Origin: a virus
Virus record (IMG/VR): IMGVR_UViG_3300002054_000060
Direction: 5' to 3' (one strand)
DNA: 26,242 nucleotides
The translations under genes were made by a program, and so were the position numbers. Below the pieces are notes generated by a model. The model made no database searches, was not told where the DNA came from, and saw nothing but the letters and a program-made list of their open reading frames with translations. Of the stretch, positions 5,891 through 25,770 are shown piece after piece. Positions within the stretch are counted from its first letter, which is position 1. Every line of letters starts with the position of its first letter.

Positions 5891-6931
5891 GTGACCAACT
5901 CTGAAAACCTTGTCAGCATGATGGCCGCTGACCTCTCCGCAATGGCTCAACCTGGGCCGTACACCATCAAGCCACAGGCGATGAACAAAGCGTTTCGCCT
6001 GAAAGATTCGGAATCCAAGCCGTTCATGTCCGCGGTGTCTGGCAAGCCCATACCCATCGGCGTCATGGGCGATACGCCCTTCGAGCAGATGATCCCCGCG
6101 TTCGATGATGACTATGTGATGGATGCAGAGCTGTTGAAAAACCTCTCTGTCGCTGTTGGCGAGAACATGCCTGTCCTGATGTACGGATTTCATGGCACGG
6201 GCAAGTCCTCTCTGTTCAAGCAATACTGCGCAGCGACGCGACGCCCGTATGTGCGTGTGCAGCACACCGGCAACACAGAAGAGCAGGATTTGCTCGGCAC
6301 CACGCTGGCTCGTGACGGCGCGACGTACTTCGCCCCGGGTGTGCTCGCTATGGCGATGCGATTCGGGTGGTTTCTGAACCTCGATGAGTACGACATGGCT
6401 GATCCATCCGTGACCGCTGTGTACCAGCCGGTACTCGAGGGTGAGCCGCTGTTCATCAAGGAAGCTCCACCCGAGTGGCGCTTTGTGCAACCACACCCTG
6501 ACTTTCGGATTGGCGCTACTGCCAACACCAACGGCTCTGGCGACGAGACAGGACTCTACCAGGGCACCAACTTGGGTAACGCCGCCAACTACTCACGGTT
6601 CTCCGTAGCGTGTCGCGTTGACTACATGGACAAGGATCAGGAAGCCCGCATTGTCATGCAGAAAGCTGGCGTGCGTGAGGAGGATGCCCGGAACTTTGTC
6701 GAGTTCGCCACGATGGTGCGCTCTGCCTTTATCAGCAAGAAAATCACCAACACGATCGGGCAGCGCGAGCTGATCGCCGCTGCCAAGTTGGGCGTGGCGC
6801 GAGTGAGCTGGACCAAGGGCTTGCAGTTAGCATTCGTCAACCGTCTGTCCGAGCAGGATCGCGCCGTCGTTGACATGATGCTCAACACCGTGTTCGCCAG
6901 TGAGTCCGAAAAGCTCGCCGCTGTTGTTTGA
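5891..6931 (+). CDS. cobS: CobS/MoxR-like AAA+ ATPase
   Basis: Walker A GFHGTGKSS, Walker B LNLDEYD, sensor ATANTNGSGD, arginine finger SRF. Start uncertain (GTG 5891 or ATG 5918; the track's TTG 5849 overlaps regulatory motifs). Confidence 0.88.
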   Translation: MTNSENLVSMMAADLSAMAQPGPYTIKPQAMNKAFRLKDSESKPFMSAVSGKPIPIGVMGDTPFEQMIPAFDDDYVMDAELLKNLSVAVGENMPVLMYGFHGTGKSSLFKQYCAATRRPYVRVQHTGNTEEQDLLGTTLARDGATYFAPGVLAMAMRFGWFLNLDEYDMADPSVTAVYQPVLEGEPLFIKEAPPEWRFVQPHPDFRIGATANTNGSGDETGLYQGTNLGNAANYSRFSVACRVDYMDKDQEARIVMQKAGVREEDARNFVEFATMVRSAFISKKITNTIGQRELIAAAKLGVARVSWTKGLQLAFVNRLSEQDRAVVDMMLNTVFASESEKLAAVV

Positions 6932-10398: not shown

Positions 10399-10486
10399 AT
10401 TTCACGATGGCCGCGCTCAGTGCGCGATCATTTCACTCGCTGGACGATCAACGTCCAGCCCCTTCACGACGACACAGGAGCACTAT

Positions 10487-11014
10487 ATGAGCGAATACGC
10501 AGCAACGGCGCAAACGCACGATACTCTGTTTGAGAATTGCAAGCCCATTGATGAGGGCCAAATTCAAAGAGACGTAGCATTCGGTGAGTTCGACACAATG
10601 GTGCGCAACCAGGCGGCCATGCGGAGTCACTACGGGGTGCAGCACGCCCGGTACTACCACGCCATGAAAAAGGCCAAGTCTAATCTGGACTTCGTTGAGG
10701 CGCGGCTGGATATGGCAATACGCACACAGGCGGAGCAAGAGGGTGAGAAAGTCACAGAAGGCAAGATTGGCTCTCGCATCAAGTCGCACGACATGTACCG
10801 CGCAGCAAAGGAGCTGCTGGAGGAGGCAGAGATGCACGCCAAAACCCTTGAGCATGTGATAGCTGCTCTGGATTCCAAGCGTGATATGCTTATACAGCAC
10901 AGTAAGCACTTACTCATAGAGCAAGGCGGCGACATGCGCATTCACGGAGACCGTGGTGCGGAGGCCGCAGCCTTGAATTCTCTGCGAGAAGCTGGGACTG
11001 CGGCAGCGGCGTAA
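10487..11014 (+). CDS. Helical protein, probably UvsY-like recombination mediator
   Basis: AGGAG SD then ATG 10487. Coiled-coil pattern EKVTEGKIGSRIKSHDMY...ALDSKRDML. Sits between the polymerase and ssb; function inferred. Confidence 0.55.
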   Translation: MSEYAATAQTHDTLFENCKPIDEGQIQRDVAFGEFDTMVRNQAAMRSHYGVQHARYYHAMKKAKSNLDFVEARLDMAIRTQAEQEGEKVTEGKIGSRIKSHDMYRAAKELLEEAEMHAKTLEHVIAALDSKRDMLIQHSKHLLIEQGGDMRIHGDRGAEAAALNSLREAGTAAAA

Positions 11015-11049
11015 AACATCACCCGAATCCGACAGTCAATACTGAGCTT

Positions 11050-11075
11050 GGCATGGGTACTCGCGTACCCATGCC
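11050..11075 (+). promoter_or_regulatory. Perfect 11-bp stem hairpin in the ssb leader
   Basis: GGCATGGGTAC-TCGC-GTACCCATGCC, no U-tract. Confidence 0.6.
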
Positions 11076-11132
11076 GTTCCACTGTCAAGTAACTACTTAC
11101 CTACTAACTACCGACAAGAGACTACAAACCAA

Positions 11133-12098
11133 ATGTCTGCATTACTCGACCTCGTAAACAAAAAACGCAAGCAACTGTCCAACAGCCAGCGGCACGCCAA
11201 CCTCTCCAGCAAGAACCAGCACATCGTGCGGCTCCTGCCCTCATGGCATGGCGTAGGCAGCGACCAAGCCTTCTGGCATGACTGGGGTATTCACTGGGTT
11301 AAGTCACCCGGTCAGGCCAAAGCCAGCGCCGTCCACATGTGCATGGCAAAGACCTTTGGCAAAGAGTGCCCCATCTGCGAAGCTATCGCAGCCGGCTCTC
11401 GCAGCACCGCTGATGACATCGAAATCAACGCGCTCAAAGAGTCAGGCAGCTCGCAGCGAATGTTGTTCAACGCCCTGATGCTCTCTGGCGACACACCCGA
11501 TGAGCCTGTTGTGCTCGAAGTGCCAGGCGGCGTTGCCAATATGATCTTTGAGATCATCGGGCAGTGGGGTGACATTTCTCATCCTGAAACCGGTCGCCCC
11601 ATCATCATCAACAAGACCGGCACTGGCTTGACCACCAAGTACACGGTGCAGCCGGCAGCGGAAGTGACGCAGGTACCCGCCTCGATCTATGAGAACGTAG
11701 TCAATCTTGAAGAGCATGTACAGCAAGAGGACGTTGCCAAGCTCAGCGCGGCTGTAGCTGCCGTCAATGCCATTACAGGCGTTGTTGGGTCATCCGCTCC
11801 GATCATGGGTGCTGCCAGTGCTACGCCTGCTATGGCACACGCAGCGCCTGCTGCGCTGGCTGCTGGTGGCTCACCAGCGGGTGCTGTGTTCGATGATGGC
11901 CTTGCCATGAACGAAGCAGCCCCAACGCCTGCAGTGGCACCTGCGGCAGCACAAGCACCAGCCGCCGCTATGGCTGCTGCCCCTGCTGCTGTAACGCCAG
12001 TGGCTGCTGCCCCTGCTGCAGTAGCACCAGCGGGTGACATCGACGCCCAACGCGCCGACTTTCGCAACTCGTTACTCGCTGGCGGCGACGCTGCGTAA
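11133..12098 (+). CDS. ssb: T4 gp32-like single-stranded DNA-binding protein
   Basis: IVRLLPSW, FWHDWGIHW, Zn-type CMAKTFGKECPICE, GRPIIINKTGTGLTTKYTV; Ala/Pro-rich flexible tail. Confidence 0.75.
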   Translation: MSALLDLVNKKRKQLSNSQRHANLSSKNQHIVRLLPSWHGVGSDQAFWHDWGIHWVKSPGQAKASAVHMCMAKTFGKECPICEAIAAGSRSTADDIEINALKESGSSQRMLFNALMLSGDTPDEPVVLEVPGGVANMIFEIIGQWGDISHPETGRPIIINKTGTGLTTKYTVQPAAEVTQVPASIYENVVNLEEHVQQEDVAKLSAAVAAVNAITGVVGSSAPIMGAASATPAMAHAAPAALAAGGSPAGAVFDDGLAMNEAAPTPAVAPAAAQAPAAAMAAAPAAVTPVAAAPAAVAPAGDIDAQRADFRNSLLAGGDAA

Positions 12099-12122
12099 GT
12101 AACCACACGGTACGTCAGTAAC

Positions 12123-12144
12123 GGGGCCACTTACGAGTGGCCCC
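12123..12144 (+). terminator. GC-rich hairpin after ssb (stabiliser or weak terminator)
   Basis: GGGGCCACT-TACG-AGTGGCCCC, 9-bp stem with UNCG-type loop, no U-tract. Confidence 0.5.
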
Positions 12145-12161
12145 TAGCTGCACTCACCCTT

Positions 12162-13118
12162 GTGAAAATCCTACTGATTGATGCGAACAACATCGGTTAC
12201 CGAGCGCACCACAGAAGCGCAGAGGTCGTTGATGGTGTCGAAGTACAAGCGATCCGCGGCGTCATAGACGCACTGCGCAGCCAGCTATCACAACTCAAGC
12301 GCTACCGCGCTGTGATGCTCTACGATGGCAACCCGCGTTTTCGTTACGCGATGTGCGATCACTACAAGGCGCAGCGTGACGCCAGCCCCAAAAGGGCCGC
12401 CATACGCCAGCGTTACCGGCAGCAGTTGCCGTTCATCAAGAAAATATCAACCGCGCTGGGGGTGGATAGCCTTTACCACCCATCGGCGGAAGCTGACGAT
12501 GTGGCCGCCTGGATGGTGCGCACGCACCCCGATGCTGAGTTCTATCTGCTCAGCGACGACGAGGATTGGCGGCAGCTCATTAACGACAGAGTTACCGTCA
12601 TTGATGCGAAGTACAAGCACTGGACGCCACAGGTTGTCTTTGAACAGTTTGGGTACGGCGTCGATCGCATTGTCCATGTGAAGGCGATGATGGGTGATTC
12701 GAGCGACAACCTCTCAGGCGTTGGGGGCTTTGGCAAAACGCACGCTCGCACGTTCATCCGAGACAACGGCTCGCTGGATGACTTCCTGCTCACAGCGTCG
12801 GGGATAAGCAAAGAAGCTCTGGCGAAGCTGCCACGCAGGATGCAGAACCTCGTGCAGAACGACCTCAGCGCTGACAAGTTCGGCATCACCATGCGACCCA
12901 CAGAGCGCTACGAGCTGAACCTCAAGATGATGGACCTGACGATGGACCACGGCATCAATTGGCGTCGGCTGGAATACACCCCCGGTGTTTACTGCCCCAC
13001 GCGCATTTTGGCCGGGCTCGAGACCATCGAGCACAACAGCGCATTGATGCGCCTAGAGACCTTCCCCCAACCGTTTGCACACCACTACGAACAGCACACC
13101 TCGGTGCCGCTGTGGTGA
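12162..13118 (+). CDS. 5'-3' exonuclease / flap endonuclease (PolA N-terminal domain, T5 D15/T4 RNase H-like)
   Basis: LLIDANN, YKAQR, EADDV, SDDEDWRQL, MGDSSDNLSGVGGFGKTHA (H3TH motif). Confidence 0.9.
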   Translation: MKILLIDANNIGYRAHHRSAEVVDGVEVQAIRGVIDALRSQLSQLKRYRAVMLYDGNPRFRYAMCDHYKAQRDASPKRAAIRQRYRQQLPFIKKISTALGVDSLYHPSAEADDVAAWMVRTHPDAEFYLLSDDEDWRQLINDRVTVIDAKYKHWTPQVVFEQFGYGVDRIVHVKAMMGDSSDNLSGVGGFGKTHARTFIRDNGSLDDFLLTASGISKEALAKLPRRMQNLVQNDLSADKFGITMRPTERYELNLKMMDLTMDHGINWRRLEYTPGVYCPTRILAGLETIEHNSALMRLETFPQPFAHHYEQHTSVPLW

Positions 13119-13138
13119 CACCTACTGATACCAAAACT

Positions 13139-15289
13139 ATGAGCAAGGCCAATCTCCTCAAGAACATCGGCAACATCGTTGGCGATCAAGCGAAGTCGCT
13201 TGAGATAAAGACCTGGATTAACACGGGGCTCCCCCCATTGAATTACTGCCTGTCTGGTCACTACGACAGAGGCTACGCACTGGGCAGGCTGTATGAAATG
13301 TTCGGCCCCAGCAGCAGCGGCAAAACCCTTTGCGCCACCAAGGCCATGATTGCAGCGCAAGAGCAGGGTGGTTGCGCCATTTTCATCGACTACGAGCAGA
13401 GCTTTGACCTGTCCCTGGCGATGGAGCTGGGCATGACGGACGAAGCGCCTTACTTCATTTACGTCGCGCCACGCACATGGGAGGAAGGCAACCAAAAGGC
13501 GATTGAATTGGCCGCTGCGATACGAGAGTCAGAGGTCATCGCCGGCACGGCTCCCATCATGATAGTGCAGGACTCGATTGCAGCGGCAGTGCCTGCCAGT
13601 CAAGTAGCCAAGGGCCACGACTTCAACGCACTGAACATGAATGACACCACGGCACTGGCGCGTGTGACCAGCACAACGCTCAAGTCGATCAAGGCATACG
13701 CCACTGACTTGCAGTTTACGTGCTTGTTCCTGAATCAAATCAGAGTCAGCCCTGGTGTTTGCTTGCGAGGAGATGTCAAGATCCCGTTCGTTGATGGCAC
13801 CTACGCGACGATGCAAGAGATCGTCAGGGGAAAAATCGCTAAGGACGTTTGGTCATTCAACCAAGAGACGGGCGAGTTTGAGGCGAAACCTATTGTTGGC
13901 TGGATGGACAATGGAAAGGTCGAGTCAAATGACGAGTGGGTGCATATCAAGTCCACCGGTCATGGCACCAAGAACGGAGTGAAAGCCGTCACAGCAACAC
14001 GCGATCACCAAATACTAACGGTGGGTGAAAACAACGAGCCAGTTTGGAAAGAGGCTCAGGACATAAAGGTGGGGGACAAGCTGTATGCGCAAGACACCCA
14101 TCAACTCAGAGATGAAGACCGAGACATATTCGCCGGCATGATACTGGGTGATGTGTCCATAAAAGAAGGTCACTCAGAGCGTGCGATAACCGCAAATCTG
14201 ACGTTTCAGGACAGTGTAGACCCCGACTATCCCGTATGGAAAACAGAACTGCTGGCCCCCATATTTGGTCGCTTCAACAGTGTCAAGTACAAATTTAACG
14301 GTAAGAATCTTGAGAAGTGGGTGGGGCAATACAGGAATGAAATCTATAGGTACAGAGAGCTTCGCAAGAATCCGTTAGAGACTTTTGAGACGTTCGGGTT
14401 GACCATGCGTGGGTTCCTTATATGGATCATGGATGATGGTCACATGGCCGACAGGGATAGATACTTCCTATCCATAGGTAGGATCAAGGATGACGTTGTG
14501 CTGGATGAGATCGCTGACTGGCTGTACTACAACCTCGGACTTCGATCAAGAGTTCGGCATCGACAAGGGCAGCTTGTATTCGACGCTGAATCTTCACGAA
14601 AAATATCAAGGGCCCTGGCAGAGTACGAAATACCCAAGTGCATGAGACGCAAAATTCTTCCCGCAGACAGGGGTAGGAGGCCGACTAAGCAATACTCAAT
14701 GAAGCCCGCCAACAAGTCAGTTGTTGTTCTTGAAACCGTCACTTGTGTGTGTGCAGCAGGAAATAAGAATAGGGGTGACCTCTCAAACACAAAATTCGAC
14801 ATAGAGGTGGCTGACAACCACAACTTTCTGGCCGGCAGTAAAGACGCGGGTTTTGTGGTTCACAACAGCTTCGGGAACCCCACTGTAACTCCGGGCGGAA
14901 AAGCTACCGAGTTCTACGCCAGCGGTCGCATATCACTGGGTCGCAAGACAAGCGTGGATAAAGTAGCGGGTCTTGAGGAGCAGGAGATCACCGCCAAGGT
15001 GGTGAAAACAAAACACACACGCCCCTTGAAAAAGTGCAGTTGGAAATTGAAGTTCCGTGACGACGGCATGGCGTGGTTTGACACCGAGCTGTCAACCATA
15101 GAGTTCGCCAAGACCAACGGGCTACTGGAAACCGCTGGCAACTACATCGTCTGGGAAGGCAAGAAATACTACGCCGTGCAGCTCGCGGAACACTTGCGCA
15201 ACACTGGCACATCGGACGCATTCACCGCATGGCTTGTGGAGAATGGTAAGGACGTTATCGCAGAGAAAGAAGAAGAGCTAGAGGCGTAG
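13139..15289 (+). CDS. recA: RecA/UvsX recombinase interrupted by an intein
   Basis: Walker A GPSSSGKT, FIDYEQSFD, DSIAA, FLNQIR...FGNPTVTPGGKATEFYASGRI. Exteins of 207 + 140 aa give 347 aa. Start ATG 13139 (GTG 13115 possible). Confidence 0.93.
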   Translation: MSKANLLKNIGNIVGDQAKSLEIKTWINTGLPPLNYCLSGHYDRGYALGRLYEMFGPSSSGKTLCATKAMIAAQEQGGCAIFIDYEQSFDLSLAMELGMTDEAPYFIYVAPRTWEEGNQKAIELAAAIRESEVIAGTAPIMIVQDSIAAAVPASQVAKGHDFNALNMNDTTALARVTSTTLKSIKAYATDLQFTCLFLNQIRVSPGVCLRGDVKIPFVDGTYATMQEIVRGKIAKDVWSFNQETGEFEAKPIVGWMDNGKVESNDEWVHIKSTGHGTKNGVKAVTATRDHQILTVGENNEPVWKEAQDIKVGDKLYAQDTHQLRDEDRDIFAGMILGDVSIKEGHSERAITANLTFQDSVDPDYPVWKTELLAPIFGRFNSVKYKFNGKNLEKWVGQYRNEIYRYRELRKNPLETFETFGLTMRGFLIWIMDDGHMADRDRYFLSIGRIKDDVVLDEIADWLYYNLGLRSRVRHRQGQLVFDAESSRKISRALAEYEIPKCMRRKILPADRGRRPTKQYSMKPANKSVVVLETVTCVCAAGNKNRGDLSNTKFDIEVADNHNFLAGSKDAGFVVHNSFGNPTVTPGGKATEFYASGRISLGRKTSVDKVAGLEEQEITAKVVKTKHTRPLKKCSWKLKFRDDGMAWFDTELSTIEFAKTNGLLETAGNYIVWEGKKYYAVQLAEHLRNTGTSDAFTAWLVENGKDVIAEKEEELEA
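13760..14866 (+). mobile_element. Intein with LAGLIDADG homing endonuclease in recA (369 aa)
   Basis: Begins CLRGDVKI, block B TATRDHQI, LAGLIDADG blocks AGMILGDVS and IWIMDDG, block F FDIEVADNHNF, ends VVHN followed by Ser. DNA is visibly more A/T-rich than the flanks. Confidence 0.93.
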
Positions 15290-15348
15290 CTGACGGCTGT
15301 AACCAACCACTCACACACTAGAGGTAACACGACAATGAGCAAGATCAA

Positions 15349-15663
15349 ATGACTAAATCAATCGAGCACGACGAGGCGGAAATCACTCGTATTATCAACA
15401 CGATGGCGTTGCCGTTCGCTGTTGATCCAGAAATCTTGGACGATTTCGCCGCGACTGTGAAGCAGGGAATGCGTGACTACAGCAGCCACATGGCAAAAAG
15501 GGGTGGCGCAGCTCACGATGAAAAGGCCCTGCGTTCCATAACCCACCCGATGCTTAGAAGCATGGTCAGTCGCGGAGAGGCGGCTACCATGTGCAAGGCG
15601 TATGCAGAAAGCCTTGGATGTGTTCGCACGTCAGCACAGCAGGGCGATGAGGGTGGGTCGTGA
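15349..15663 (+). CDS. Hypothetical protein
   Basis: 104-aa ORF in operon orientation, preceded by a coupled 5-codon ORF with GAGGT SD. Confidence 0.55.
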   Translation: MTKSIEHDEAEITRIINTMALPFAVDPEILDDFAATVKQGMRDYSSHMAKRGGAAHDEKALRSITHPMLRSMVSRGEAATMCKAYAESLGCVRTSAQQGDEGGS

Positions 15664-15818
15664 ACCTACTGCCCGTCAACAGAGTCGAGCTGTTCAAGGG
15701 CTGGCTGAACGCTGCCGGCGCAGATGTTCTTTCGCCAACGAACCCCTACGAGCTGGTACGTTTCGATTGCCCACACGGCATCGGCGTGCTCTACACCGGT
15801 AAGCGCTCAACGAGGTGA
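15660..15818 (+). CDS. Small hypothetical phage protein (52 aa), not in the ORF track
   Basis: GTGA overlap with the upstream stop. Translates MNLLPVNRVELFKGWLNAAGADVLSPTNPYELVRFDCPHGIGVLYTGKRSTR and fills the gap to the next ATG. Confidence 0.55.
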   Translation: MNLLPVNRVELFKGWLNAAGADVLSPTNPYELVRFDCPHGIGVLYTGKRSTR

Positions 15819-15821
15819 ACG

Positions 15822-16403
15822 ATGACCACTAAGCCCCCCAAGCGCCCTGTCGTCAAGCGCGACGACTACGGTTACTTCACCACGTCACCTGCCACCTCCA
15901 TGAAGATGGCCGAGAAGCAGACGCTGTGCGGTAGTTGTGGCCGGCAATCAAGCTGCAACTTGCCGGGCATCCAGCGCGAAGGGCGCACACGCGACCACTG
16001 GGCCGTCATCGATGTGGTGGCGTGCGACATCTTTGTGCCGCAGATCATTTTCTACAACCCTCACATGCCAGAGGGTCGCTGGAACACACTTAGGCTCGGC
16101 GATCGATCCTCGTTTCTCCAAAAGGGCCAGCAAGTACAGATCATTGACCCCAGTGGCGCTCACCTGAGCTTCGCCCGTGTCACGAGCGTTATCGTTGGCG
16201 ACAAGGACATCATCATCGAAGAGCACGCACGGTTCAACCACTCTGTAAAGGATATGAACCTCAAAAAGCAAGAGAAAACCGATTACATCAAGCGCAAGTT
16301 GCCGCAGCACTACCACAGCCACCTGTGGGCACGCACGACGCAAGTGACAGCGGTGTACTTGAAAGCCATCCCTGAACTCACACAAACCGAATACAAGAGC
16401 TGA
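15822..16403 (+). CDS. Hypothetical protein with Cys cluster and possible ASCH/PUA-like domain
   Basis: GAGGT SD. CGSC...C...C, followed by WNTLRLG...LQKGQQVQII...ARVTSVIVG...HARFN, which resembles the ASCH pattern. Confidence 0.6.
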   Translation: MTTKPPKRPVVKRDDYGYFTTSPATSMKMAEKQTLCGSCGRQSSCNLPGIQREGRTRDHWAVIDVVACDIFVPQIIFYNPHMPEGRWNTLRLGDRSSFLQKGQQVQIIDPSGAHLSFARVTSVIVGDKDIIIEEHARFNHSVKDMNLKKQEKTDYIKRKLPQHYHSHLWARTTQVTAVYLKAIPELTQTEYKS

Positions 16404-17473
16404 TGAAACCCATGCAACCCTTTGTGCTGGTAAGCGACATACACCTGCACAACTTCACCCAGTTTGACCGCCCCACTGAGCACGGCCACGGCACACGAGT
16501 CGAGCACACGCTGCAAGCTCTGCTAGAAGCGGCCCAGGCAGCGCGCACAGTGAACATCAACCGCATGGTCATAGCGGGAGACATCTTTCACGTCCGCGGC
16601 AAGCTGTCGCCCTCTGTTGTCAATCCATTCCGCGACACGCTGGACCTTTTGGTGAAATCAGGCTTCACCATCGAGATGATCCCTGGCAATCATGACCTTG
16701 AGACAGAGAACTCCTATGAGCACTCAAGTGCAATTCAGTTTTTGCGCACCGAGAATCTGGTGAAGGTGTATTCACACCCAACCATCACCGGTGATGATAT
16801 CTACTTCATTCCTTGGACGCCAGACCTGAACGAACTCAAAGAGCTACTGCAAGCGCCACCGGATACGGAGCGCTGCGATTTGGCAGTGGTCATGCACGCG
16901 CCGGTCAATGGCGTGATCCCGGGTCTGCCAGATACGGGGTTAGACCCCGCATGGCTGACAAAACTGGGCTACAAGGCCATATTTTCCGGGCACTACCACC
17001 GCCACGTTGATTTCAGCAACAACGTCTACTCGATTGGCGCGCTGAACCACCATAACTTCGGGGATGTGGGCACCAAGGCGGGTTACATGATCGTGCGGGA
17101 CAGTGGCGTTCTGAGCATCGAGCAACATGAGACGCAAGCGCCGAGATTTGTGGACCACCACCCTGATTTGCCCCATGGCGAGTACGCAGGTCACTACGTT
17201 CGCGCAACGCTGACCGACTCAACGATCACAGAGCGCGAGCGCTTTAGGGACGAACTACTGAATGACGGAGCGCTCGGCGTCATGGTGCGCAATGTCAAGA
17301 CGGCGCCCGAGTACCGCACCGGGGAATCCAGCGAGCGAGCTGCCAGTAGTGAGGGACTGCTCGACATTGCCAAGAGCTACATCAACGAGCGCTACCCAGA
17401 GGGCGTGCAAGCGGAGCGCGTCTACAAACAGGTTGAGCGCTTGCTTACCAAAGCAGAGGAGGCAACACCATGA
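16403..17473 (+). CDS. sbcD: SbcD/Mre11-like metallophosphoesterase nuclease
   Basis: SDIH, GDIFH, GNHD, MH, GHYH motifs; upstream of an SMC-like ATPase. Confidence 0.92.
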   Translation: MKPMQPFVLVSDIHLHNFTQFDRPTEHGHGTRVEHTLQALLEAAQAARTVNINRMVIAGDIFHVRGKLSPSVVNPFRDTLDLLVKSGFTIEMIPGNHDLETENSYEHSSAIQFLRTENLVKVYSHPTITGDDIYFIPWTPDLNELKELLQAPPDTERCDLAVVMHAPVNGVIPGLPDTGLDPAWLTKLGYKAIFSGHYHRHVDFSNNVYSIGALNHHNFGDVGTKAGYMIVRDSGVLSIEQHETQAPRFVDHHPDLPHGEYAGHYVRATLTDSTITERERFRDELLNDGALGVMVRNVKTAPEYRTGESSERAASSEGLLDIAKSYINERYPEGVQAERVYKQVERLLTKAEEATP

Positions 17474-19485
17474 TCATTGACCGGCTCGACATAGAACACT
17501 TCATGGCGATAGGGCACGCATCGCTCTCGCTCAACGATAAAGGCTTGGTGCTCCTCCAGGGCGAGAACACAGATGACCCATCAGCGCTCTCCAACGGCGC
17601 AGGCAAAAGCTCTATCGCCGATGCTTTCATGTGGTGCCTGACCGGAGAGACGGCGCGCAAGCTCTCCTCAGATGGCGTTATCAACAGAGAGGCCAAGTAC
17701 TGCTACGTCGGCATGACGCTGCGCGATGGCGCTCACTTGTGGCAGATCGACCGGTATCGCAAGCATCCTAAGCACAAAAGCGTGCTACGGCTGACACACA
17801 CCGGCGCAGAGGGCACATCTGCTGACTTGACGCTCGGCACCAACAAGCTCACGCAGGACAAAATTTACTCGGTGCTTGGCGCGGAGCGCGATGTATTGCT
17901 GGCATCAGTGTACGCAGCACAGGACGGCATGGTGGATCTGCCGGCAATGGCTGACAAGTCACTCAAGCAGATCGTAGAGCACGCCGCTGGCATGGAGCGT
18001 TTGGCAACCGCAGATGAACTTGCCAAGGGGGAACTGAGTGATGCCAAGCGGGCACTCGAGTCGGCGCAGCAAGCGTGCGAATCCTCACGAGGCACACTCG
18101 TTATGGCACAGAGCAACATGGATACCACCCTGGCATCACAGGCTCAATGGATTGAAGAACGCCAAAATCGGCGCAAAAAATTGGAAGAGGAGCTCAAGCC
18201 CTTATACAAGCAGCGCGACGCACTCGATGCGGAGGCTGCTCGACTGGTTGGCGCGATCGGGGAAAAACCCACGGAAATGCTGGACGCCATGAATGAGGTG
18301 CACACCCTGCGTAAAGCCATCAGCGACCAAAGCCAGGCGTTGTTGAAGCACAACGAGGAAGCGCAGCGGGCTCGCCATCTTGCAGAGGAGGTGCAAAATT
18401 CTCTCAAAGACGTGGTGACATCGCAACAGTTGGCACGCAATGCCATTGAGGCAATAGAAGCAGAGGCTGCTGACACCTGCCCCCATTGCAAGAGTGCTTT
18501 TGACAATAGCGCTTCCAAAGCAGAGCGCATCGCGGCGCATCAACAAAAGCTGGAGGCTCTGCAGAAATCCCACGATGGATTTTCAGAGAAAGCTGTAGCG
18601 GCCCAGGAGAGCCACGCAGCGCTGTTGGCTACCATGCCAGTGGTGTCACACGACGACAGCGCTTTGCAAGCCGCAGAGGAGCGCCTAGCGGGCCTCACTG
18701 CAAAACGCGAGGCATACGACGCAAGAGTGGCCGTCCATACCAAGCACACCGAAATACAGAGCGCCATACTTGGCAAGATTCATAGCCTGCAAAGCACAGT
18801 CGCCGCCATCGTTGAGGATTTGGACGGACCTTCGCCTTTTGCGCTACAGATTGCGCAATCAGAGCAACAGATCAAAGACTTCAAGCAGGCTTTGTTTGAG
18901 AACGAGGCACATGTTGCGGAACTGACCGATGCGCTGCACGTTGCCACCGATGTGGCTGCTTGCCTAGCAGCCAAGGGGATCCGTGCCCGGGTGTTGGATA
19001 CCGTGACGCCATACCTGAACGAACGCACCAGTGACTATCTAGCGACGCTATCTGATGACAGTTTGCACGCGCAGTGGCACACGCTCGACGTTAAAGCGGA
19101 CGGGGAGCTGCGCGAGAACTTCCACATCGAGATTGGTGGCGACTCAGCCTCTGAGTCCTACGCAGGACTCTCCGGTGGCGAGAAGCGCAAGGTGAAGCTC
19201 GCGTGTTGTCTGGCCCTGCAGGATTTGATTGCGGAGCGTGCGAGCCAACATATCAGTCTGTTCATTGCAGACGAGATTGACGACGCGCTAGACACTGCGG
19301 GACTGGAGCGACTCATGCAACTGCTGGAGCTACGAGCCCGTGAGCGTGGCACGCTGCTGATTATCTCTCATAATGACCTGCAGGATTGGGTACGGCAGAC
19401 AACGACTGTCACCAAGCACGGTGGCGTCTCAACCATTAGTGGCACACTGGCAATTGAGCCAACAACAGAGAGTAAGGCAGCATGA
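17470..19485 (+). CDS. sbcC: SbcC/Rad50-like SMC ATPase
   Basis: Walker A NGAGKSS, coiled coils with zinc hook CPHC, signature LSGGEK, Walker B IADEIDDALD, H-loop ISH. Confidence 0.93.
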   Translation: MIIDRLDIEHFMAIGHASLSLNDKGLVLLQGENTDDPSALSNGAGKSSIADAFMWCLTGETARKLSSDGVINREAKYCYVGMTLRDGAHLWQIDRYRKHPKHKSVLRLTHTGAEGTSADLTLGTNKLTQDKIYSVLGAERDVLLASVYAAQDGMVDLPAMADKSLKQIVEHAAGMERLATADELAKGELSDAKRALESAQQACESSRGTLVMAQSNMDTTLASQAQWIEERQNRRKKLEEELKPLYKQRDALDAEAARLVGAIGEKPTEMLDAMNEVHTLRKAISDQSQALLKHNEEAQRARHLAEEVQNSLKDVVTSQQLARNAIEAIEAEAADTCPHCKSAFDNSASKAERIAAHQQKLEALQKSHDGFSEKAVAAQESHAALLATMPVVSHDDSALQAAEERLAGLTAKREAYDARVAVHTKHTEIQSAILGKIHSLQSTVAAIVEDLDGPSPFALQIAQSEQQIKDFKQALFENEAHVAELTDALHVATDVAACLAAKGIRARVLDTVTPYLNERTSDYLATLSDDSLHAQWHTLDVKADGELRENFHIEIGGDSASESYAGLSGGEKRKVKLACCLALQDLIAERASQHISLFIADEIDDALDTAGLERLMQLLELRARERGTLLIISHNDLQDWVRQTTTVTKHGGVSTISGTLAIEPTTESKAA

Positions 19486-19913
19486 AAAGAACCCCCGAGT
19501 GCGACACATTTGGCGGCACCGAAGATGTTGAAATGATTGACCAGGTGGCAGACCTGATCTTCGACGCCGGCAAGGAAGGCGATGCGGATTTCATCAATGG
19601 TTTGGCAGCCACGCTGTACGCCAATTCAGTAAGTAAGGGCTTCTGGGAGGAGGATCGCTCAGACGGCGAAAGTATCGTTCTTATGCACTCAGAATTATCT
19701 GAGGCGCTTGAGGCACTGCGCGACCAGAGGGGCGACAAGCGCATACCCTCCAAGAAAATTGAGGGGTTCTCTCTGCTGGAAGAAGAGATGGCTGATCTGA
19801 TGATTCGAGTGCTCGACTACGCCGGGAGAAACTCGCTTGATGTCGGCGGTGCACTGATCCATAAGGCTCGATACAACCGCAGCCGGCCCCACAAGCATGG
19901 CAAAGCGTTTTAG
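19482..19913 (+). CDS. MazG-like nucleotide pyrophosphohydrolase
   Basis: LMHSELSEALEALR...EEEMADLMIRVLD...KARYNRSRPHKHGK, the all-alpha NTP-PPase pattern. Confidence 0.8.
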   Translation: MKRTPECDTFGGTEDVEMIDQVADLIFDAGKEGDADFINGLAATLYANSVSKGFWEEDRSDGESIVLMHSELSEALEALRDQRGDKRIPSKKIEGFSLLEEEMADLMIRVLDYAGRNSLDVGGALIHKARYNRSRPHKHGKAF

Positions 19914-19975
19914 CGCTGCCCTCGCTTCAACACTTATAGTAACCACTCACATAGCCAACACGCAGGAGCACAACC

Positions 19976-20671
19976 ATGAGCGCCGACCCACCTTCGCACT
20001 CGATCAGCGACATGCTGGCAGACGCAGCAGTTGTCATAGGTGAGGGCAAACGCCGCAACGTCGAGGCCACTTATGAGCGCGGCTCAATCGAGTGGACGTA
20101 CCACAGGCTCAACGGAGGTGATCTAAACAGCGCCATCACCGATGAGTTCGATTACTTTCGCCACATGATCGCCCACGGCATCATTGATATTGACGAAAAA
20201 GGTTTGGGTGGGGCCATTTGGGGCCTCAATGTGCGCACTTTTGAAACACTGACGGCTTGCGATGTACATGCCAAATCACATCGCTTCAAGTTTGATTACT
20301 TCGGTTGTTGCGTGGATGCTGACGGCATTGATGTCAAAGAGAGCTGGCGCTACACGCCGGTTGATATCTGGCAGTCACAGCGCGCCGTTGAGTTTGGTGG
20401 GGAAGCTGATGGCGAAATTAAGCCCGTGACCACCGTGGCTTGCCTGATACATGGCACAGATGAGCCTGGGTTTTTCGTTTGCATACTTGAAGATCTGATT
20501 AGTTGGTGTAAACCACTGCAGGCGGCTTTGCTGGATTGCATTGACAGTGAGCTGTATGAGCTTTACACGGGCCACAAGGCGCGTGAGCTTGAGAAGGAGC
20601 AAGCCAAGCTGCTCGAAGCAGACGCCGCCACTGAGGAGCACTACGGCGACAGTTGGGGCGCGTATGCCTGA
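19976..20671 (+). CDS. Hypothetical protein, paralogue 1 (ends HYGDSWGAYA)
   Basis: AGGAG SD; 231 aa; shares motifs with the next two ORFs. Confidence 0.75.
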   Translation: MSADPPSHSISDMLADAAVVIGEGKRRNVEATYERGSIEWTYHRLNGGDLNSAITDEFDYFRHMIAHGIIDIDEKGLGGAIWGLNVRTFETLTACDVHAKSHRFKFDYFGCCVDADGIDVKESWRYTPVDIWQSQRAVEFGGEADGEIKPVTTVACLIHGTDEPGFFVCILEDLISWCKPLQAALLDCIDSELYELYTGHKARELEKEQAKLLEADAATEEHYGDSWGAYA

Positions 20672-21224
20672 CGCTTTCCCCAACCTGGAGCTCGCCAGGC
20701 GATTGTTCATAGATGAGGCGAAACACATGCAGGCGCTGTTCGATGACGGCGTGCTGGATCATATAAGCACAGTCAACACTGGCGAAGGGCGCCGGTGTAT
20801 TGGCCCTAGAACATTGAGAGACCCGAATAGCTCCCTACAACAGCTACTGGAGGACGATATAAATCACGAGGGCGCGATTGACTACGAAAATTTGTACTCG
20901 AGCCGCACGCCTCGCTTTCGAGTGACTAGGGTAATTGGCTTCCTCAATGTCGATGTTGTCGGTGTCGATGAAAGTGGAGAGGCATCAGGTTGGGAGGAGG
21001 TGCTGATCTGCATCAGAAGAGACGGCGAAGCCGTATACGGGCATTATCTTTTGACGCTGAAAGTCGCCTGTAACGGATTGGGTGGTTTCAACAAACTACT
21101 GGAGTTTGCCTCTAAGGAGATTGACGAGTGCGTGTTGCAAGCTGCCCGAAAAAAGAAGCAGGCGGTCAAAAAGGCCAAAGATGACGCTCTGCACTACGGC
21201 AGTCGCTGGGGTACGTATGCCTGA
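20664..21224 (+). CDS. Hypothetical protein, paralogue 2 (ends HYGSRWGTYA)
   Basis: ATG 20664 overlaps the upstream stop by 8 bp; starts MPD. Confidence 0.72.
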   Translation: MPDAFPNLELARRLFIDEAKHMQALFDDGVLDHISTVNTGEGRRCIGPRTLRDPNSSLQQLLEDDINHEGAIDYENLYSSRTPRFRVTRVIGFLNVDVVGVDESGEASGWEEVLICIRRDGEAVYGHYLLTLKVACNGLGGFNKLLEFASKEIDECVLQAARKKKQAVKKAKDDALHYGSRWGTYA

Positions 21225-21843
21225 CAAGAAATCAATACGAGGGCGATTTGAACGCCGGCTGGCAACCAATGGCCGCGGCGGCATCGAGGATGCGCTAGAG
21301 CAGGCCGTCACGGAGAACCTGGATTACTTTCGGTACGCCCTGAAAAACGCAGACGTGGAGTGGGGCGTTTTCCCCGAGTGTGTGAACCCAAATCTCAGGG
21401 CGCGTGCTGCGCAAACTGGCCCTTCATTGAGTGCGATGATTGAGGGCATTAGCGAGCCTCGGCACGCCACACTACTGCCCCGCCTGTGTTTGAAGCCGGT
21501 CGATGTCACGCTTTGCCACAACATCTCAAAGGACGACTACTGCACGGGTGACTTAGACGTGAGTGAAGCCTTCTCGGCGCCATCACTCATGGTGTTGTGC
21601 GAAATACAAGGGCTGCATATCCAGCATGACCACAAAGGTAGTAACGTTGAATTTGTTGCCATCCCGTTTCGCGAGGCCATGCGTGGCATTTCAGGCATTA
21701 CAGAAGTCTTTGATACCTTCACAGATGACGATATGCTGGATCGGGTACGACAACGCATAGCCCAGTCTCACAAGGACGTTGCCGAGGACGAGCAGCGCAA
21801 GGCTAAAGCTCACTATAAGGATAGATGGGGAAAATACGCTTGA
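21217..21843 (+). CDS. Hypothetical protein, paralogue 3 (ends HYKDRWGKYA)
   Basis: ATG 21217 overlaps the upstream stop by 8 bp; starts MPD; AVTENLDYFRY resembles AITDEFDYFRH of paralogue 1. Confidence 0.72.
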   Translation: MPDKKSIRGRFERRLATNGRGGIEDALEQAVTENLDYFRYALKNADVEWGVFPECVNPNLRARAAQTGPSLSAMIEGISEPRHATLLPRLCLKPVDVTLCHNISKDDYCTGDLDVSEAFSAPSLMVLCEIQGLHIQHDHKGSNVEFVAIPFREAMRGISGITEVFDTFTDDDMLDRVRQRIAQSHKDVAEDEQRKAKAHYKDRWGKYA

Positions 21844-22409
21844 AAACAGAAGCAACAGCGCAAGCCAATGAGGTTATGGTGCTGGGGTGTGACCCCGGCT
21901 TTGCCAAGTTTGGCATGGCTCTAACCGCGGTGAATCTCGACACCATGACGGTCAGGCCCATCCGAATTGATCTGGCTGTATCCAAGAAAAACAGTAGTAA
22001 ACAGGTGCTGGTATCAAGCGACGACGTGCGGCGCATCTCTGACGTGCGCAATCAGGTGGTTGCAATGGCAACTCAGGCAGACTTGATCATGAGCGAGGTG
22101 CCCAGTGGTGGTGCAAAGAGTCATGCAGCCGCCAAAGCAATGGCGTATGCAACGGCCATACTCGCCTCAGTGCAGTTACCCCTGATTCAAGTCACGCCAC
22201 TGCAGGTGAAATTCGCCGCTACGGGTGATAAGCACGCGAGCAAAGCCGAAATGATTGCGTGGGCCCGTGAAAAGCACGGTGCGCTCAACTGGACGAAAAC
22301 GCTGAAAGATGAGCACATGGCCGATGCGCTAGCGGCTGTCTACGCCGGTATTGAATCCGAGCAGTTTTTGACCTCCACGGTGATGATGCGATCCTTGAAA
22401 ACTGCTTAA
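21840..22409 (+). CDS. ruvC: RuvC-like Holliday junction resolvase
   Basis: VLGCDPG, MSEVP, VTPLQVKFAATGDKHASKAEM, EHMADALA. Start uncertain (ATG 21825, TTG 21840 or ATG 21876). Confidence 0.88.
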   Translation: MKTEATAQANEVMVLGCDPGFAKFGMALTAVNLDTMTVRPIRIDLAVSKKNSSKQVLVSSDDVRRISDVRNQVVAMATQADLIMSEVPSGGAKSHAAAKAMAYATAILASVQLPLIQVTPLQVKFAATGDKHASKAEMIAWAREKHGALNWTKTLKDEHMADALAAVYAGIESEQFLTSTVMMRSLKTA

Positions 22410-22412
22410 TAG

Positions 22413-22439
22413 TTAACAAAGTAAGTACACACCTATAAT
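22413..22439 (+). promoter_or_regulatory. Candidate sigma70 promoter overlapped by an operator-like site
   Basis: Perfect TATAAT at 22434-22439 directly after AGTAAGTACACACC (22420-22433); weak -35. Confidence 0.5.
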
Positions 22440-22606
22440 TCTTTGTTACTGTACTTTCTTCCAATTGCAACTATGCTTATTTACCTTGAGCGTAGTTGTA
22501 AGGGAACACGGCGACGCTACAAGCTTGCCCTTGAGTCGCCAATCTTCACTCACTGCCTGAAGTAGCGCCAATCACGGCGATACTGGGCAAAAGCGGCGTC
22601 AATTCC

Positions 22607-23095
22607 ATGAGTAACCCCGTTGTCCATCTGGACCTCATCAGCTTAAAGTCATTCTCTTATAGTCTGAGCTACAGTGGCGATCACCTCGATGTATTGTGCT
22701 CAGTGCCCGCACTCGTTGTGTTACTGCATCCCCACCTGAGCTTTAGAAATCCTGAATTAAGGCCAGACATGACACTACTCTGCCTGCCGCAAAGCGCAGA
22801 CGAGGCTCGTGTCATTCAGATTGGCATGAATGCCGTCAGATCAACCTCTGACAGCTACGATGAACTCACGCAAGGGCACGACGTATGTGACCAGCGCGCC
22901 GCCTTGTGCTTGTCGATGGGCACCTACGTAACGGCCACTGTTGATAAGTGCCAGCCAATGAATTGGTTGAAAGTCGTGCAGAGCGTTGCTGACATCGGCG
23001 CGCTGAAAAAAGAAGAGGTTGATTTGGTCATGGAGCGCTGTATGCAGGCCATTGATGCAGCTAGAGAGGAATCTCTGGTGCGTGAAATGGCGTAA
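22607..23095 (+). CDS. Hypothetical protein
   Basis: 162-aa ORF in operon orientation; no recognised motif. Confidence 0.6.
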   Translation: MSNPVVHLDLISLKSFSYSLSYSGDHLDVLCSVPALVVLLHPHLSFRNPELRPDMTLLCLPQSADEARVIQIGMNAVRSTSDSYDELTQGHDVCDQRAALCLSMGTYVTATVDKCQPMNWLKVVQSVADIGALKKEEVDLVMERCMQAIDAAREESLVREMA

Positions 23096-23127
23096 CCTTG
23101 GCGCCTCTTAAAGAGGAGATTTGATTG

Positions 23128-23529
23128 ATGCCCGCTATTGGAATTTACAGCCGCCGCAAAAACCTTACGTCGAGCAAAAGCTCATTGGTTGAACTGCACT
23201 ACGGTGGTGCGCGCAGCACTGCGATCATGCCAGGCCAAACACTTGAGTTGCCGAGCGATGTGCAAATCACCGAGCTGCCGGAGGGTGCGGAGCTTTATCT
23301 GGAAGCTGCACTGTCGGATAAATATGGCCTGATACTGGGTACTGATCCAGTCTCTGTGAGTGTGGGAGAGGCTGTCATGTTCACACTGACCAACACAGGC
23401 CATGCACGCCGCACCATCTCTCGAGGCTTGTGTTACGCCAAGCTCGGTTACAAAAGCTCAGGTGAGGAGGCGCCGGAGGACGAGCCAGAAAGCGCAGAGC
23501 TGCCCGCAGAGACCCCTGATACTGAATAG
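23128..23529 (+). CDS. dUTPase-fold-like protein lacking catalytic motifs
   Basis: GAGGAG SD. IMPGQTLELPSDVQITELPEG...KYGLIL...LTNTG...ISRG...AKL follows the trimeric dUTPase beta pattern but has no RSG or GxIDxDY motif. Confidence 0.5.
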   Translation: MPAIGIYSRRKNLTSSKSSLVELHYGGARSTAIMPGQTLELPSDVQITELPEGAELYLEAALSDKYGLILGTDPVSVSVGEAVMFTLTNTGHARRTISRGLCYAKLGYKSSGEEAPEDEPESAELPAETPDTE

Positions 23530-23602
23530 CCACAGCACCCGCGCTCTGGGGGTTATGTTATCTGCTGTATAAGTAAGCACATACACAACCCCGGAGTGCG
23601 AT

Positions 23603-23854
23603 ATGGAAGTCCCCTCGTTTGAAGATGAAATTGAGCGCAAGGCGGCGGACACGCTGGCGACTGTGATTAGCAGCTACGAACAGCAGCGCATCAGCACCGA
23701 AGTGGCGGCGGCTGCGATACGCACGCTCTACCTCACCGTGTCTGGCCTGGTAAGCACGGAGCTGATGTCGCTGATCGTCGCGGCTGACACGGAGCTGCGT
23801 GGTAGGTTGACAAAAGAAGGCGTTGTGGTTGACAAAAATGCGTTCCACGGTTGA
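23603..23854 (+). CDS. Hypothetical protein
   Basis: GGAG SD, 83-aa helical ORF. Confidence 0.6.
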   Translation: MEVPSFEDEIERKAADTLATVISSYEQQRISTEVAAAAIRTLYLTVSGLVSTELMSLIVAADTELRGRLTKEGVVVDKNAFHG

Positions 23855-23866
23855 CAAAGAATCCCC

Positions 23867-24451
23867 ATGAAAGCTCTGGTGCTAGACATTGAAACGACCG
23901 GCTTCATGAAGAAGTCGAACAAGGCTGACGTGGTGGAGTTCGCTTCGCAGTTGATTGACACAACCACCGGTGATCGTCTCGGAGCGATTGAAAAGAGATT
24001 TCGCCCCACCGCCCCCATTGAGCCTGACGCAGAGGCTGTGCATGGCATCAGCGCGGAGATGGTGTCAGGCTGCCAGCCCTTTGAGAAGTTCATCGCTCCC
24101 CTGGTGGAGCTAATCAACCTGCAGGTTGATGTGTTGGTCGCACACAACGCGAGCTTTGACGTGCCGTTCTTGAAGCAGGTCATTCAGCGCTTCAAGCCTG
24201 AATGCGATCTGGAGCTGGTGCCGACGTTCTGCACGATGGAAGAGGGGCGCTGGGCTACTTATGACGGCAAATCACCCACGCTGGGTGAGCTGTGCTACGC
24301 CTGCTCAGTGGATTATGACCGAGATGCTGCCCACGCGGCGCTCTATGATGTTGAAAAGACGGTGGAGTGCCTGAATTTTGGCAGACACGCTGGATTCTAC
24401 GATCTGTCGAGCCTCAAACCACACACCGTCAGCGTCAGCAAGGCGGCGTAG
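23867..24451 (+). CDS. dnaQ: DEDDh 3'-5' exonuclease (DNA Pol III epsilon-like)
   Basis: ExoI LDIETTG, VHGIS, ExoII VAHNASFDVPFL, ExoIII HAALYDV. Confidence 0.9.
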   Translation: MKALVLDIETTGFMKKSNKADVVEFASQLIDTTTGDRLGAIEKRFRPTAPIEPDAEAVHGISAEMVSGCQPFEKFIAPLVELINLQVDVLVAHNASFDVPFLKQVIQRFKPECDLELVPTFCTMEEGRWATYDGKSPTLGELCYACSVDYDRDAAHAALYDVEKTVECLNFGRHAGFYDLSSLKPHTVSVSKAA

Positions 24452-24495
24452 CGCCTCATCACCACGTTTTTTCACCAAAAGAGGGGGTAGTGTTT

Positions 24496-24615
24496 ATGGA
24501 TTTTCTGCTTGGATTGATCGCCGGGATGGCCGTTGGCGTGGTTTTCCGGTCACAAGTCATCAAGCTGTACGAGGTGACACTCAAAAAATGGATGTCAGGC
24601 ACGACTGGTAAGTGA
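24496..24615 (+). CDS. Small single-pass membrane protein (39 aa)
   Basis: GAGGGGG SD then MDFLLGLIAGMAVGVVFRSQVIKLYEVTLKKWMSGTTGK: hydrophobic N-terminal helix plus basic tail. Confidence 0.65.
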   Translation: MDFLLGLIAGMAVGVVFRSQVIKLYEVTLKKWMSGTTGK

Positions 24616-24653
24616 CTCACACACGCAGGCTTATAGTGTGCTAACCTATTGAT

Positions 24654-24749
24654 TCGTTGGGGGTAGTGCCTCAACGGCACGTTGTAGAGGTATTTCCTCG
24701 TAATGTGTGAGTGAAGAGCGTCAGGCTTCGGCCTGGCGCTTTTTTTTTT
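24654..24749 (+). ncRNA. Candidate small regulatory RNA
   Basis: Extended -10-like TGcTAACCT (24639-24647), hairpins at 24655-24676 and 24687-24699, a single-stranded segment, then a strong intrinsic terminator. No plausible ORF. Confidence 0.45.
24717..24749 (+). terminator. Rho-independent terminator
   Basis: AGCGTCAGGC-TTCG-GCCTGGCGCT followed by T9; C(UUCG)G tetraloop. Confidence 0.9.
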
Positions 24750-24789
24750 GGCTGTTGAAAACCCCTGAGATTGTGCGCCATGCTTTGCA

Positions 24790-24818
24790 TTGCGCAGCTC
24801 AGAGTAAGCGCTTACTAT
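24790..24818 (+). promoter_or_regulatory. Candidate sigma70 promoter overlapped by the perfect palindrome AGTAAGCGCTTACT (24803-24816)
   Basis: TTGCGC-17 bp-TACTAT, directly after the terminator. Confidence 0.6.
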
Positions 24819-24845: not shown

Positions 24846-25325
24846 ATGATGAAAGACACCGCAGCGACCAGGGGCAACTGGCTTTACACCGAGTTGCTGG
24901 AAATGCCGGCTGATGAGGCGCTAGCGCTACTGACGCGAGTTGTTAAAGAGCGCCAAGTAGGCACGGCTACGCTACGCAACTTGCTGCGTGGCGAAACCCC
25001 CGTTGTCAGCGTCAGTTGGGCATTGAAGCCCAACGGCATGGGCCCTGATGAATTTGACATCGTGGCTCACATCGGCGCCCAGCAAGTCTGTTTCATCCGA
25101 GAATGCAACTTGCCCCGCTATGGCAAGTACATGATGAAGCTGGACTGTCACGCTGGCCCCTTGTTTGGCAATGACAAGGAAAAACTAAAGCGATCGGCGG
25201 AGCGCAAACTCAAGCGTTACGTGGAGTCGCTACTGACTGCACCGCCCACACTCACACGCTCACGGACTCACCATGATCTATCGAGACAAAAACGAAAGGC
25301 AGATAACCCGAGAAAAGTGGCTTGA
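24846..25325 (+). CDS. Hypothetical protein
   Basis: ATG 24846 downstream of the predicted promoter; the track start 24771 would overlap it. Confidence 0.55.
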   Translation: MMKDTAATRGNWLYTELLEMPADEALALLTRVVKERQVGTATLRNLLRGETPVVSVSWALKPNGMGPDEFDIVAHIGAQQVCFIRECNLPRYGKYMMKLDCHAGPLFGNDKEKLKRSAERKLKRYVESLLTAPPTLTRSRTHHDLSRQKRKADNPRKVA

Positions 25326-25707: not shown

Positions 25708-25770
25708 CGTAACAACCCCCGCAATCAGGAGTGCATAGTGGCTGCTCACACACCAGAGGAAGCATTGACT

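Follow-up and report, generated by a model that had tools for sequence, protein, structure and literature searches.

The window, which is the whole 26,242-nt stretch of viral DNA analysed here (IMG/VR record IMGVR_UViG_3300002054_000060), carries downstream of its dnaQ-like gene a unit with hairpins and an intrinsic terminator, one segment of which is complementary to a tag in the leaders of the element's own early genes. The complementarity is one-sided, and the layout recurs in relatives with changed seeds. Judging from sequence, we consider it probable that positions 24644-24749 encode a trans-acting anti-leader RNA, which would repress translation of these genes.

The window appears to be the left part of an integrated temperate phage, and the content and order of its replication module place it with the SSU5/nickie-like phages. 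The integrase gene is followed by a small reverse gene and a gene for an HTH protein, then by CobT-like, CobS-like, DnaE, SSB, exonuclease and RecA-like genes onward, and after the RecA-like gene by SbcD, SbcC, pyrophosphatase, RuvC and dnaQ. This is the order in Pseudomonas phage nickie and Salmonella phage SSU5, and the series CobT-CobS-DnaE-SSB-exonuclease-RecA-SbcD-SbcC-RuvC-dnaQ is common to SSU5/nickie-like phages and phage-plasmids. Related palindromic promoter motifs are also held in common with these phages. Unlike them, the window element has an integrase adjoining a host-type HNH gene and appears integrated. The following genes are referred to below:

1434..2654, + strand: tyrosine integrase (int); leader without the tag
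2636..2911, - strand: small gene beside int, of the function-less family phrog_4996; read as xis (excisionase) from position only
3013..3459, - strand: HTH protein, likely an operator-binding repressor; leader without the tag
23867..24451, + strand: dnaQ-like 3'-5' exonuclease; used as synteny marker for finding relatives

The candidate RNA unit is neighboured by dnaQ, a 39-aa ORF and ORFs without assigned role, and no antirepressor family was matched among the window proteins scanned. Two features of other genes were recorded in passing. A segment of ∼370 aa splits the RecA-like gene (13139-15289); its GC is lower, and its ends look intein-like by eye (C...HN/S). At 19976-21843, three adjacent ORFs with overlapping stop and start codons have similar C-termini (...HY.D.WG.YA) and no PHROG or Pfam match.

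In the collections searched, the best dnaQ homologues were ∼45% identical and no close relative of the window was found. Viral contigs searched with the single proteins dnaQ and SbcD yielded no relatives, and BLAST of the RNA unit against phage records gave short chance matches only. Three public runs matched the window DNA, all of them DNA runs (none RNA) from one algal metagenome study; the two that were compared with the window showed only its probable source DNA, free of variants.

The predicted RNA unit and its leader matches

The unit was divided into the following features, all on the + strand:

24615..24623: sense copy of the tag, 9 nt, just past the upstream stop codon
24632..24637: -10-like hexamer TATAGT, 5/6 match, resembling the early promoters in type; predicted +1 at ∼24644
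24639..24647: alternative extended -10, TG-C-TAACCT, weak (3/6); +1 would be at ∼24654
24644..24749: predicted small RNA, ∼95-105 nt depending on the start chosen, with hairpin 1, hairpin 2, toehold and terminator
24655..24676: hairpin 1, 8 bp, with the loop GUAGUG
24677..24708: hairpin 2, with a G-U-rich lower stem, a UA/G internal loop and a GAGG/CCUC upper stem
24696..24699: anti-Shine-Dalgarno (anti-SD) CCUC, able to pair with GAGG/GGAG behind the tag in the 15334, 19976 and 25771 leaders
24704..24717: antisense seed, called the linker in the sequence-only reading; toehold GAGU at 24709-24712
24713..24749: intrinsic terminator with UUCG loop, 14-pair stem (24713-24744) and 10-T run to 24749

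The start of the predicted RNA was placed by -10 spacing. The sequence-only reading had described hairpins and a strong terminator, and both are borne out: the + strand of the unit folds at z -6.5 to -7.7 (-49.9 kcal/mol at z -6.5), and the - strand far more weakly (z = -3.0). Its extended -10-like element is present but scores below the plain TATAGT upstream, which is itself without a good -35. The unit had been described as free of ORFs, but a 127-aa ORF without Pfam match spans it on the - strand. The linker had been taken as unpaired, and this holds for a small part only. Positions 24709-24712 (GAGU) are mostly open in the predicted fold, but 24704-24708 make up hairpin 2's 3' arm and the U-tail is a potential partner for 24713-24717, which leaves a toehold of ∼4-9 nt and requires strand displacement for pairing of the remaining seed bases. 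The 3' arm of hairpin 2 holds the anti-SD and half of the seed.

A search of Rfam 15 (c4 and GcvB models included) assigned the unit to no family at gathering score; the best score was 22 bits against a threshold of 43, reflecting likeness to terminators only. The Rfam covariance models likewise gave 0 matches at gathering score on seven relatives' loci. Note also that the window (9 nt) and the G006 unit at L276:6350 (-) (8 nt) each have a sense copy of the tag ∼100 nt before the terminator. In a longer transcript, 24615-24623 and 24704-24712 are predicted to form a perfect 9-bp helix, and a read-through transcript would sequester its own seed, a possible off-switch.

Ten leader matches to the reverse complement of 24704-24717 had been listed before this analysis, and all ten proved exact in coordinates and length:

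2928..2936, - strand: leader of the xis-like gene; 9 nt, 5 nt after TAGAAT
3665..3672, + strand: CobT-like leader; 8 nt, the right half of an operator-like palindrome (3654-3671)
5866..5875, + strand: CobS-like leader; 10 nt, the right half of such a palindrome (5855-5872)
12151..12157, + strand: before the 5'-3' exonuclease gene; 7 nt
15308..15325, + strand: 15334 leader, the best target; 10-nt tag plus GAGG
16376..16384, + strand: before sbcD; 9 nt, inside the tail of the upstream ORF
19944..19951, + strand: 19976 leader; 8 nt, following TATAGT, the right half of such a palindrome (19936-19953)
22543..22553, + strand: before ATG 22607; 11 nt, 54 nt upstream, without a full operator
25249..25257, + strand: before ATG 25273; 9 nt, without a full operator
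25745..25761, + strand: 25771 leader; 8 nt, following CATAGT, plus GAGGAA

That list leaves out some matches: one of 10 nt in int (1984), one of 8 nt in the CobT-like gene (∼5440), that of 9 nt at 24615-24623, and three located within genes on the - strand. The tag is CTCAC-based and lies 5-54 nt before start codons. In five targets it starts exactly 5 nt past a -10-like hexamer, at the predicted +1, so that operator, start site and tag overlap. Two tags lie well away from the Shine-Dalgarno sequence (SD), at 43-54 nt upstream of the start codon, and two sit within upstream reading frames and not at a 5' end. Separately, a five-codon ORF (15334-15351) was seen right behind the SD of the best target; it overlaps the start of the 15349 gene, to which it is possibly coupled in translation.

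Leaders were defined as the 70 nt upstream of the start codon. An antisense match of at least 8 nt was present in 9/28 leaders, and a sense match of at least 7 nt in 0/28. With leaders shortened to 50 nt, 8/29 were matched against 0.21-0.27 expected. As a look-elsewhere control, 50,471 14-nt segments from both strands, none overlapping a matched leader, were scored in the same manner. Eight matched six or more leaders; seven were the linker itself (24700-24719), and the eighth was the reverse complement of the sense copy (24615-24628).

Predicted pairing energies were compared with those of shuffled sequences. The mean duplex energy for the 10 best leaders was -22.4, versus -18.4 ± 1.1 for shuffled segments (0/300 shuffles as good). 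Predicted net binding was strongest for the 15334 leader (-14.6 kcal/mol; 0/60 shuffles as good), followed by the 25771 and xis leaders (-10.5 and -10.1 kcal/mol; 3/60 each), and was modest for cobT, cobS and 19976 (-7.8 to -9.0 kcal/mol; 2-9/60). Predicted binding of the int and HTH leaders was no better than that of shuffles. The number of leaders below -13 kcal/mol (23, versus 22.1 in shuffles) did not discriminate. For the 15334, 19976 and 25771 leaders, complementarity runs past the seed into the CCUC anti-SD; the cobT, cobS and 22607 matches cover the predicted 5' end only and stop short of the SD.

Seeds and leaders in related elements

Alignment of dnaQ retrieved 150 loci, of which 93 remained after dereplication. 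Counts of ACTCAC were not raised in 80 relative loci, showing that the window's seed itself is not conserved, and tests independent of the seed were therefore used. The flank upstream of each non-coding terminator was scored for mirroring the leaders of its own locus. In this test, the window ranked first and L164, with an unrelated seed, ranked second. The first non-coding terminator within 3 kb after dnaQ reached p<0.05 in 6/23 loci, as compared with 4/95 other terminators (Fisher p 0.004; 5/22 and p 0.011 without the window); for seven of the loci, whole-record leader sets were obtained after the first screen, which raised power.

A fixed 22-nt pre-terminator stretch missed L126 and L157, in which the seed lies further upstream, and was replaced by sliding windows. 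Units were then paired with leaders in a 22 x 22 matrix, in which -log10 p was at least 4 for 9/22 own pairs versus 7/462 cross pairs, the strongest cross pairs being those between elements with a common tag. Some of these units were hand-picked, and the screen preceded the selection of some units and of the whole genomes they come from. The 13/22 units that fell below threshold for their own leaders include the structurally closest ones (L160, L202 and L255), for which only 12-45 leaders could be tested. In a scan blind to terminators, the same units were best genome-wide in the window, G006, G008 and G015. Antisense matches peaked in the 50 nt before starts (84 and 119, versus 22-45 in other bins), a peak partly built in by the selection of units, and sense matches were flat at 22-36. 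In 15 further genomes, picked without regard to score, 2/105 units passed as compared with 10/3255 cross pairs, a result that alone is not significant; one passing unit is a palindromic operator, and the other, from G025, is clean and has the full layout. The system is either uncommon or often missed by exact 8-mer matching and by the simple gene caller and terminator finder.

Covariation of seed and target had been proposed as a check on the regulon idea, and several distant relatives supply it: their seeds differ, and each has matches in the leaders of its own genome but not in those of unrelated ones. Elements with their own seed/tag pairs have dnaQ proteins 38-47% identical to that of the window, and because differing seeds match differing tags across lineages this far apart, the matches amount to natural compensatory evidence. 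The proposed trans-acting regulon is partly supported and gains from this covariation; the linker is mostly paired, and strict exact matching located the system in a minority of relatives only.

The relatives' promoter-hairpin-terminator units lie mostly just downstream of dnaQ. A sigma-70-like -10 is present in most, accompanied in several by TTGACN or TG, and in several relatives the promoter is near consensus and stronger than that of the window. The dnaQ-linked unit of G006 matches 27/135 leaders, 26 of them on the early strand; one of the matches spans 21 nt and runs through the SD. Another G006 unit reaches 24/135 by way of a seed and an SD-proximal segment. Among the proteins of this genome submitted for annotation (49/131), the matched genes include RecA-like, CobS-like, ParA and ligase; its major head, portal, terminase and tail-fibre genes are unmatched, and one uncharacterised gene of the structural region is matched. 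The G006 tag begins at the predicted +1, mostly outside the palindrome. G015 has two units (13/175 and 15/175 leaders) with matches centred on the SD. Other units match 11/133 leaders by up to 14 nt (G008), 8/131 by up to 15 nt, with matches of 14-15 nt (G009), 11/132 with the full layout (G025), 8/173 (G001) and 7/25 (L209). G008, G009, G015, G001 and L209 repeat the G006 pattern, each with sequences of its own. Matches in the AT-rich G007 are weak. Units that lie far from dnaQ or resemble that of the window in structure are:

L274:18150-18290: second anti-leader unit of G006, far from dnaQ; bipartite, with a hairpin between the complementary segments
L330:12790-12900: second anti-leader unit of G015, far from dnaQ
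L202:4040-4115 and L255:7555-7630: short units with TG-n-TACAAT, a hairpin with the GUAGUG loop of hairpin 1, a GUUAGUGUG linker and a terminator
L160:11065-11178: unit with a UA/G internal-loop hairpin like hairpin 2 of the window

In L255, two leaders have 7-nt matches after a -10 box, and in L160 the match of one leader (∼12175-12210) to the unit is split into two segments and takes in 11 nt over the SD. Seven aligned units showed 44% column identity and local likeness only, and do not form one sequence family; the case for common descent therefore relies on location behind dnaQ and on motifs of local extent. In SSU5 and nickie, 50 kb of each were read and yielded no antisense unit. The leaders of SSU5 (L339) contain a recurring palindromic AAACAATTTGTTT-type motif and AAGGAAAAAACACATG. 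Matches with equal sense and antisense scores or with palindromic operators were discarded (G002 L286, G015 L330:18506, G016 and G007). A scan for a seed-plus-U-run pattern was uninformative: it returned 120 loci, 11 with a hairpin and none with nearby motif enrichment. The L128-type version of the unit is present in 27 Acinetobacter baumannii plasmid records (87% identity), so that RNA-seq already available could reveal whether it is transcribed.

Proposed mechanism and alternatives

As we envisage it, transcription would start at ∼24644 from TATAGT, and the open GAGU(GAAG) toehold beside the terminator would catch the CUCAC tag at the 5' end of an mRNA. Pairing would then spread into hairpin 2, along its wobble-rich 3' arm, and free CCUC, which in the best targets could cover the SD; in other targets a C/A-rich, enhancer-like stretch would be masked instead. 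Translation of early, replication and excision genes would be lowered together. On balance we lean slightly toward a role in the lysogen, where the RNA would back up the repressor as a second lock, over an early-to-late lytic timer. A lock is suggested by the RNA's own promoter, which is without a full operator (best 7/16 near 24615), by the untagged repressor and integrase leaders, and by the near-consensus sigma-70 promoters of several relatives. A timer is favoured by the location of the unit inside the early region and by the ParA target in G006, which fits a pure lysogeny lock poorly. More tentatively, and with slightly more doubt than confidence, we suggest that a branch of the SSU5/nickie-like temperate phages built an RNA address system, in which early mRNAs carry a lineage-specific tag in their first bases and one or two small mirror RNAs silence the early programme as a whole. 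Because tag and seed diverge together, they could set superinfection-immunity groups independently of the protein repressor.

The sequence-only reading had itself named a reversed DNA operator half-site as the alternative to an RNA. An operator is indeed present as a family of 18-bp palindromes, several of which overlap -10 boxes:

1337, 2949, 3576, 3654, 5821, 5855, 11086, 15300, 19936, 22418, 23570 and 24801 (within 1337..24818): twelve non-coding operator-like sites, TAAGTAAG-NN-CTTACTTA

An additional site scoring 13/16 lies within a coding region (10899-10916) upstream of the SSB gene. Relatives have palindromes of the form TAAGTCA-N4-TGACTTA or TAAGTAAG-NN-CTTACTTA near -10 boxes, and across the family such palindromes could define its regulon. 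In an account confined to DNA or acting only in cis, the tag would be a drifted right half of the operator and the linker a reversed half-site or the partner of 24615-24623, with pairing inside the 3' end structure of the dnaQ operon transcript. The predicted 9-bp helix fits this account, as do the ten window sites scoring at least 12/16 (0.19 expected), the ACTCAC variants of the half-site that occur in relatives, and four of the ten targets (3665, 5866, 15308 and 19944), which are right halves of palindromes scoring at least 10/16. The other six targets, however, have no full operator, and the linker is not a full 18-bp palindrome and is without a second half-site (best 8/16, versus 10-13/16 at promoter sites). 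The T-to-C drift that turns a half-site into a perfect seed partner is oriented with transcription, being found in the downstream halves of 7/12 sites, with the mirror change in the upstream halves of 0/12 (4 versus 2 at the second position). Matches in G006, G015 and G025 lie beyond the palindrome or over the SD, which a DNA half-site would not explain, and an upstream sense copy of at least 8 nt is present in only 2/9 units examined and absent from the 7 others. The operator is real but insufficient as an explanation, and we regard the DNA-level or cis-only account as rather unlikely.

Pairing could also act on transcription, if the RNA bound nascent early RNAs over their first 10 nt, or bound the open promoter, and caused premature termination, as the CI RNA of phage P4 does. 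Five window tags as well as that of G006 begin at the predicted +1, and two window tags are far from the SD. In three window leaders and in G006, G015 and G025, complementarity extends to the SD or centres on it, and two window tags are inside upstream reading frames; we judge this mode of action unlikely. Compositional coincidence between C/A-rich leaders and a G/U-rich terminator flank would agree with the weak G007 matches and with the often A/C-rich leaders of phages. For the window it is largely refuted by the one-sided leader counts and the look-elsewhere control; in relatives, backgrounds were drawn from other genomes' leaders, and each of the differing seeds has matches only among its own leaders or closely related ones. 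As an explanation of the whole, coincidence is very improbable. We also consider it improbable that the RNA stimulates its targets by shielding mRNA 5' ends from decay or by opening leader structure. The cobT, cobS and 22607 matches, which stop before the SD, would suit such a role, but anti-SD extensions recur, and an sRNA can silence the enhancers formed by C/A-rich stretches before the SD, as described for GcvB (PMC3879156).

Comparison with known phage and host RNAs

If the trans-acting reading is correct, a phage RNA addressing 10-27 of the phage's own early genes through a leader tag would constitute a genome-wide post-transcriptional switch. The phage antisense RNAs compared here, as their sources describe them, are each directed at a single operon, and seed RNAs with multiple targets are known in hosts. 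A literature search, covering main texts and incomplete in coverage, returned no report of an anti-leader RNA in SSU5/nickie-like phages, and no validated early sRNA is described in the available text of the phiKZ dRNA-seq study (PMC8244752).

C4 of phage P1 is described as completing the repression of ant (PMC8198154). Like C4, the candidate would be an antisense RNA encoded by the phage and would reinforce the repressor's control of lytic functions as a second layer (PMC8198154). Unlike C4, which is directed at the icd-ant operon, it mirrors a tag in 9 leaders, and in up to 27 in a relative; the window unit neither lies inside nor targets an icd-ant antirepressor operon. Phage RNAs described as repressing phage genes by pairing, some of them tied to lysogeny or superinfection exclusion, include P22 sar, lambda OOP and aQ, and BTP1 STnc6030 (PMC12197685). 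By the same account each acts on one transcript, and none is said to target a shared leader tag, as the window candidate would (PMC12197685).

The closest functional parallel considered outside phages is GcvB, which is described as silencing ACA enhancer motifs upstream of the SD (PMC3879156). Both have a G/U-rich seed, C/A-rich pre-SD stretches of many mRNAs as partners, predicted ones for the candidate, and a small RNA that ends in a terminator (PMC3879156). As in GcvB-like RNAs, the window seed is complementary to several leaders beyond chance, and seed and target change together, in a minority of relatives only. No sequence likeness to GcvB was found in the Rfam 15 search. Unlike GcvB, a host RNA acting on genes for amino-acid transport and metabolism (PMC3879156), the candidate and its targets are both phage-encoded, the tag coincides with the predicted +1 of promoters under operator control, and tag and seed change jointly from lineage to lineage.

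The start-associated sequences (SAS and ESAS) of Cluster K mycobacteriophages offer a parallel for the tag. SAS is a 13-bp sequence, GGGATAGGAGCCC, located 3-7 nt before start codons; it is non-palindromic, stands in one orientation before non-structural genes and has an upstream inverted repeat in about half of cases, and its function is left open in the account available (PMC3203893). Four Cluster K phages have a single, oppositely oriented copy with no tie to a start (PMC3203893). An oriented, start-associated tag with a single reversed copy is thus common to both systems (PMC3203893). Sequence and phage group differ, the window tag being CTCAC-based and 5-54 nt upstream and therefore no member of the Cluster K SAS, and the reversed SAS copy is not treated as an RNA gene in the available text (PMC3203893). 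An anti-leader RNA of the kind proposed here would suggest a function for unexplained start-associated tags that have a single reversed copy, such as the SAS of Cluster K.
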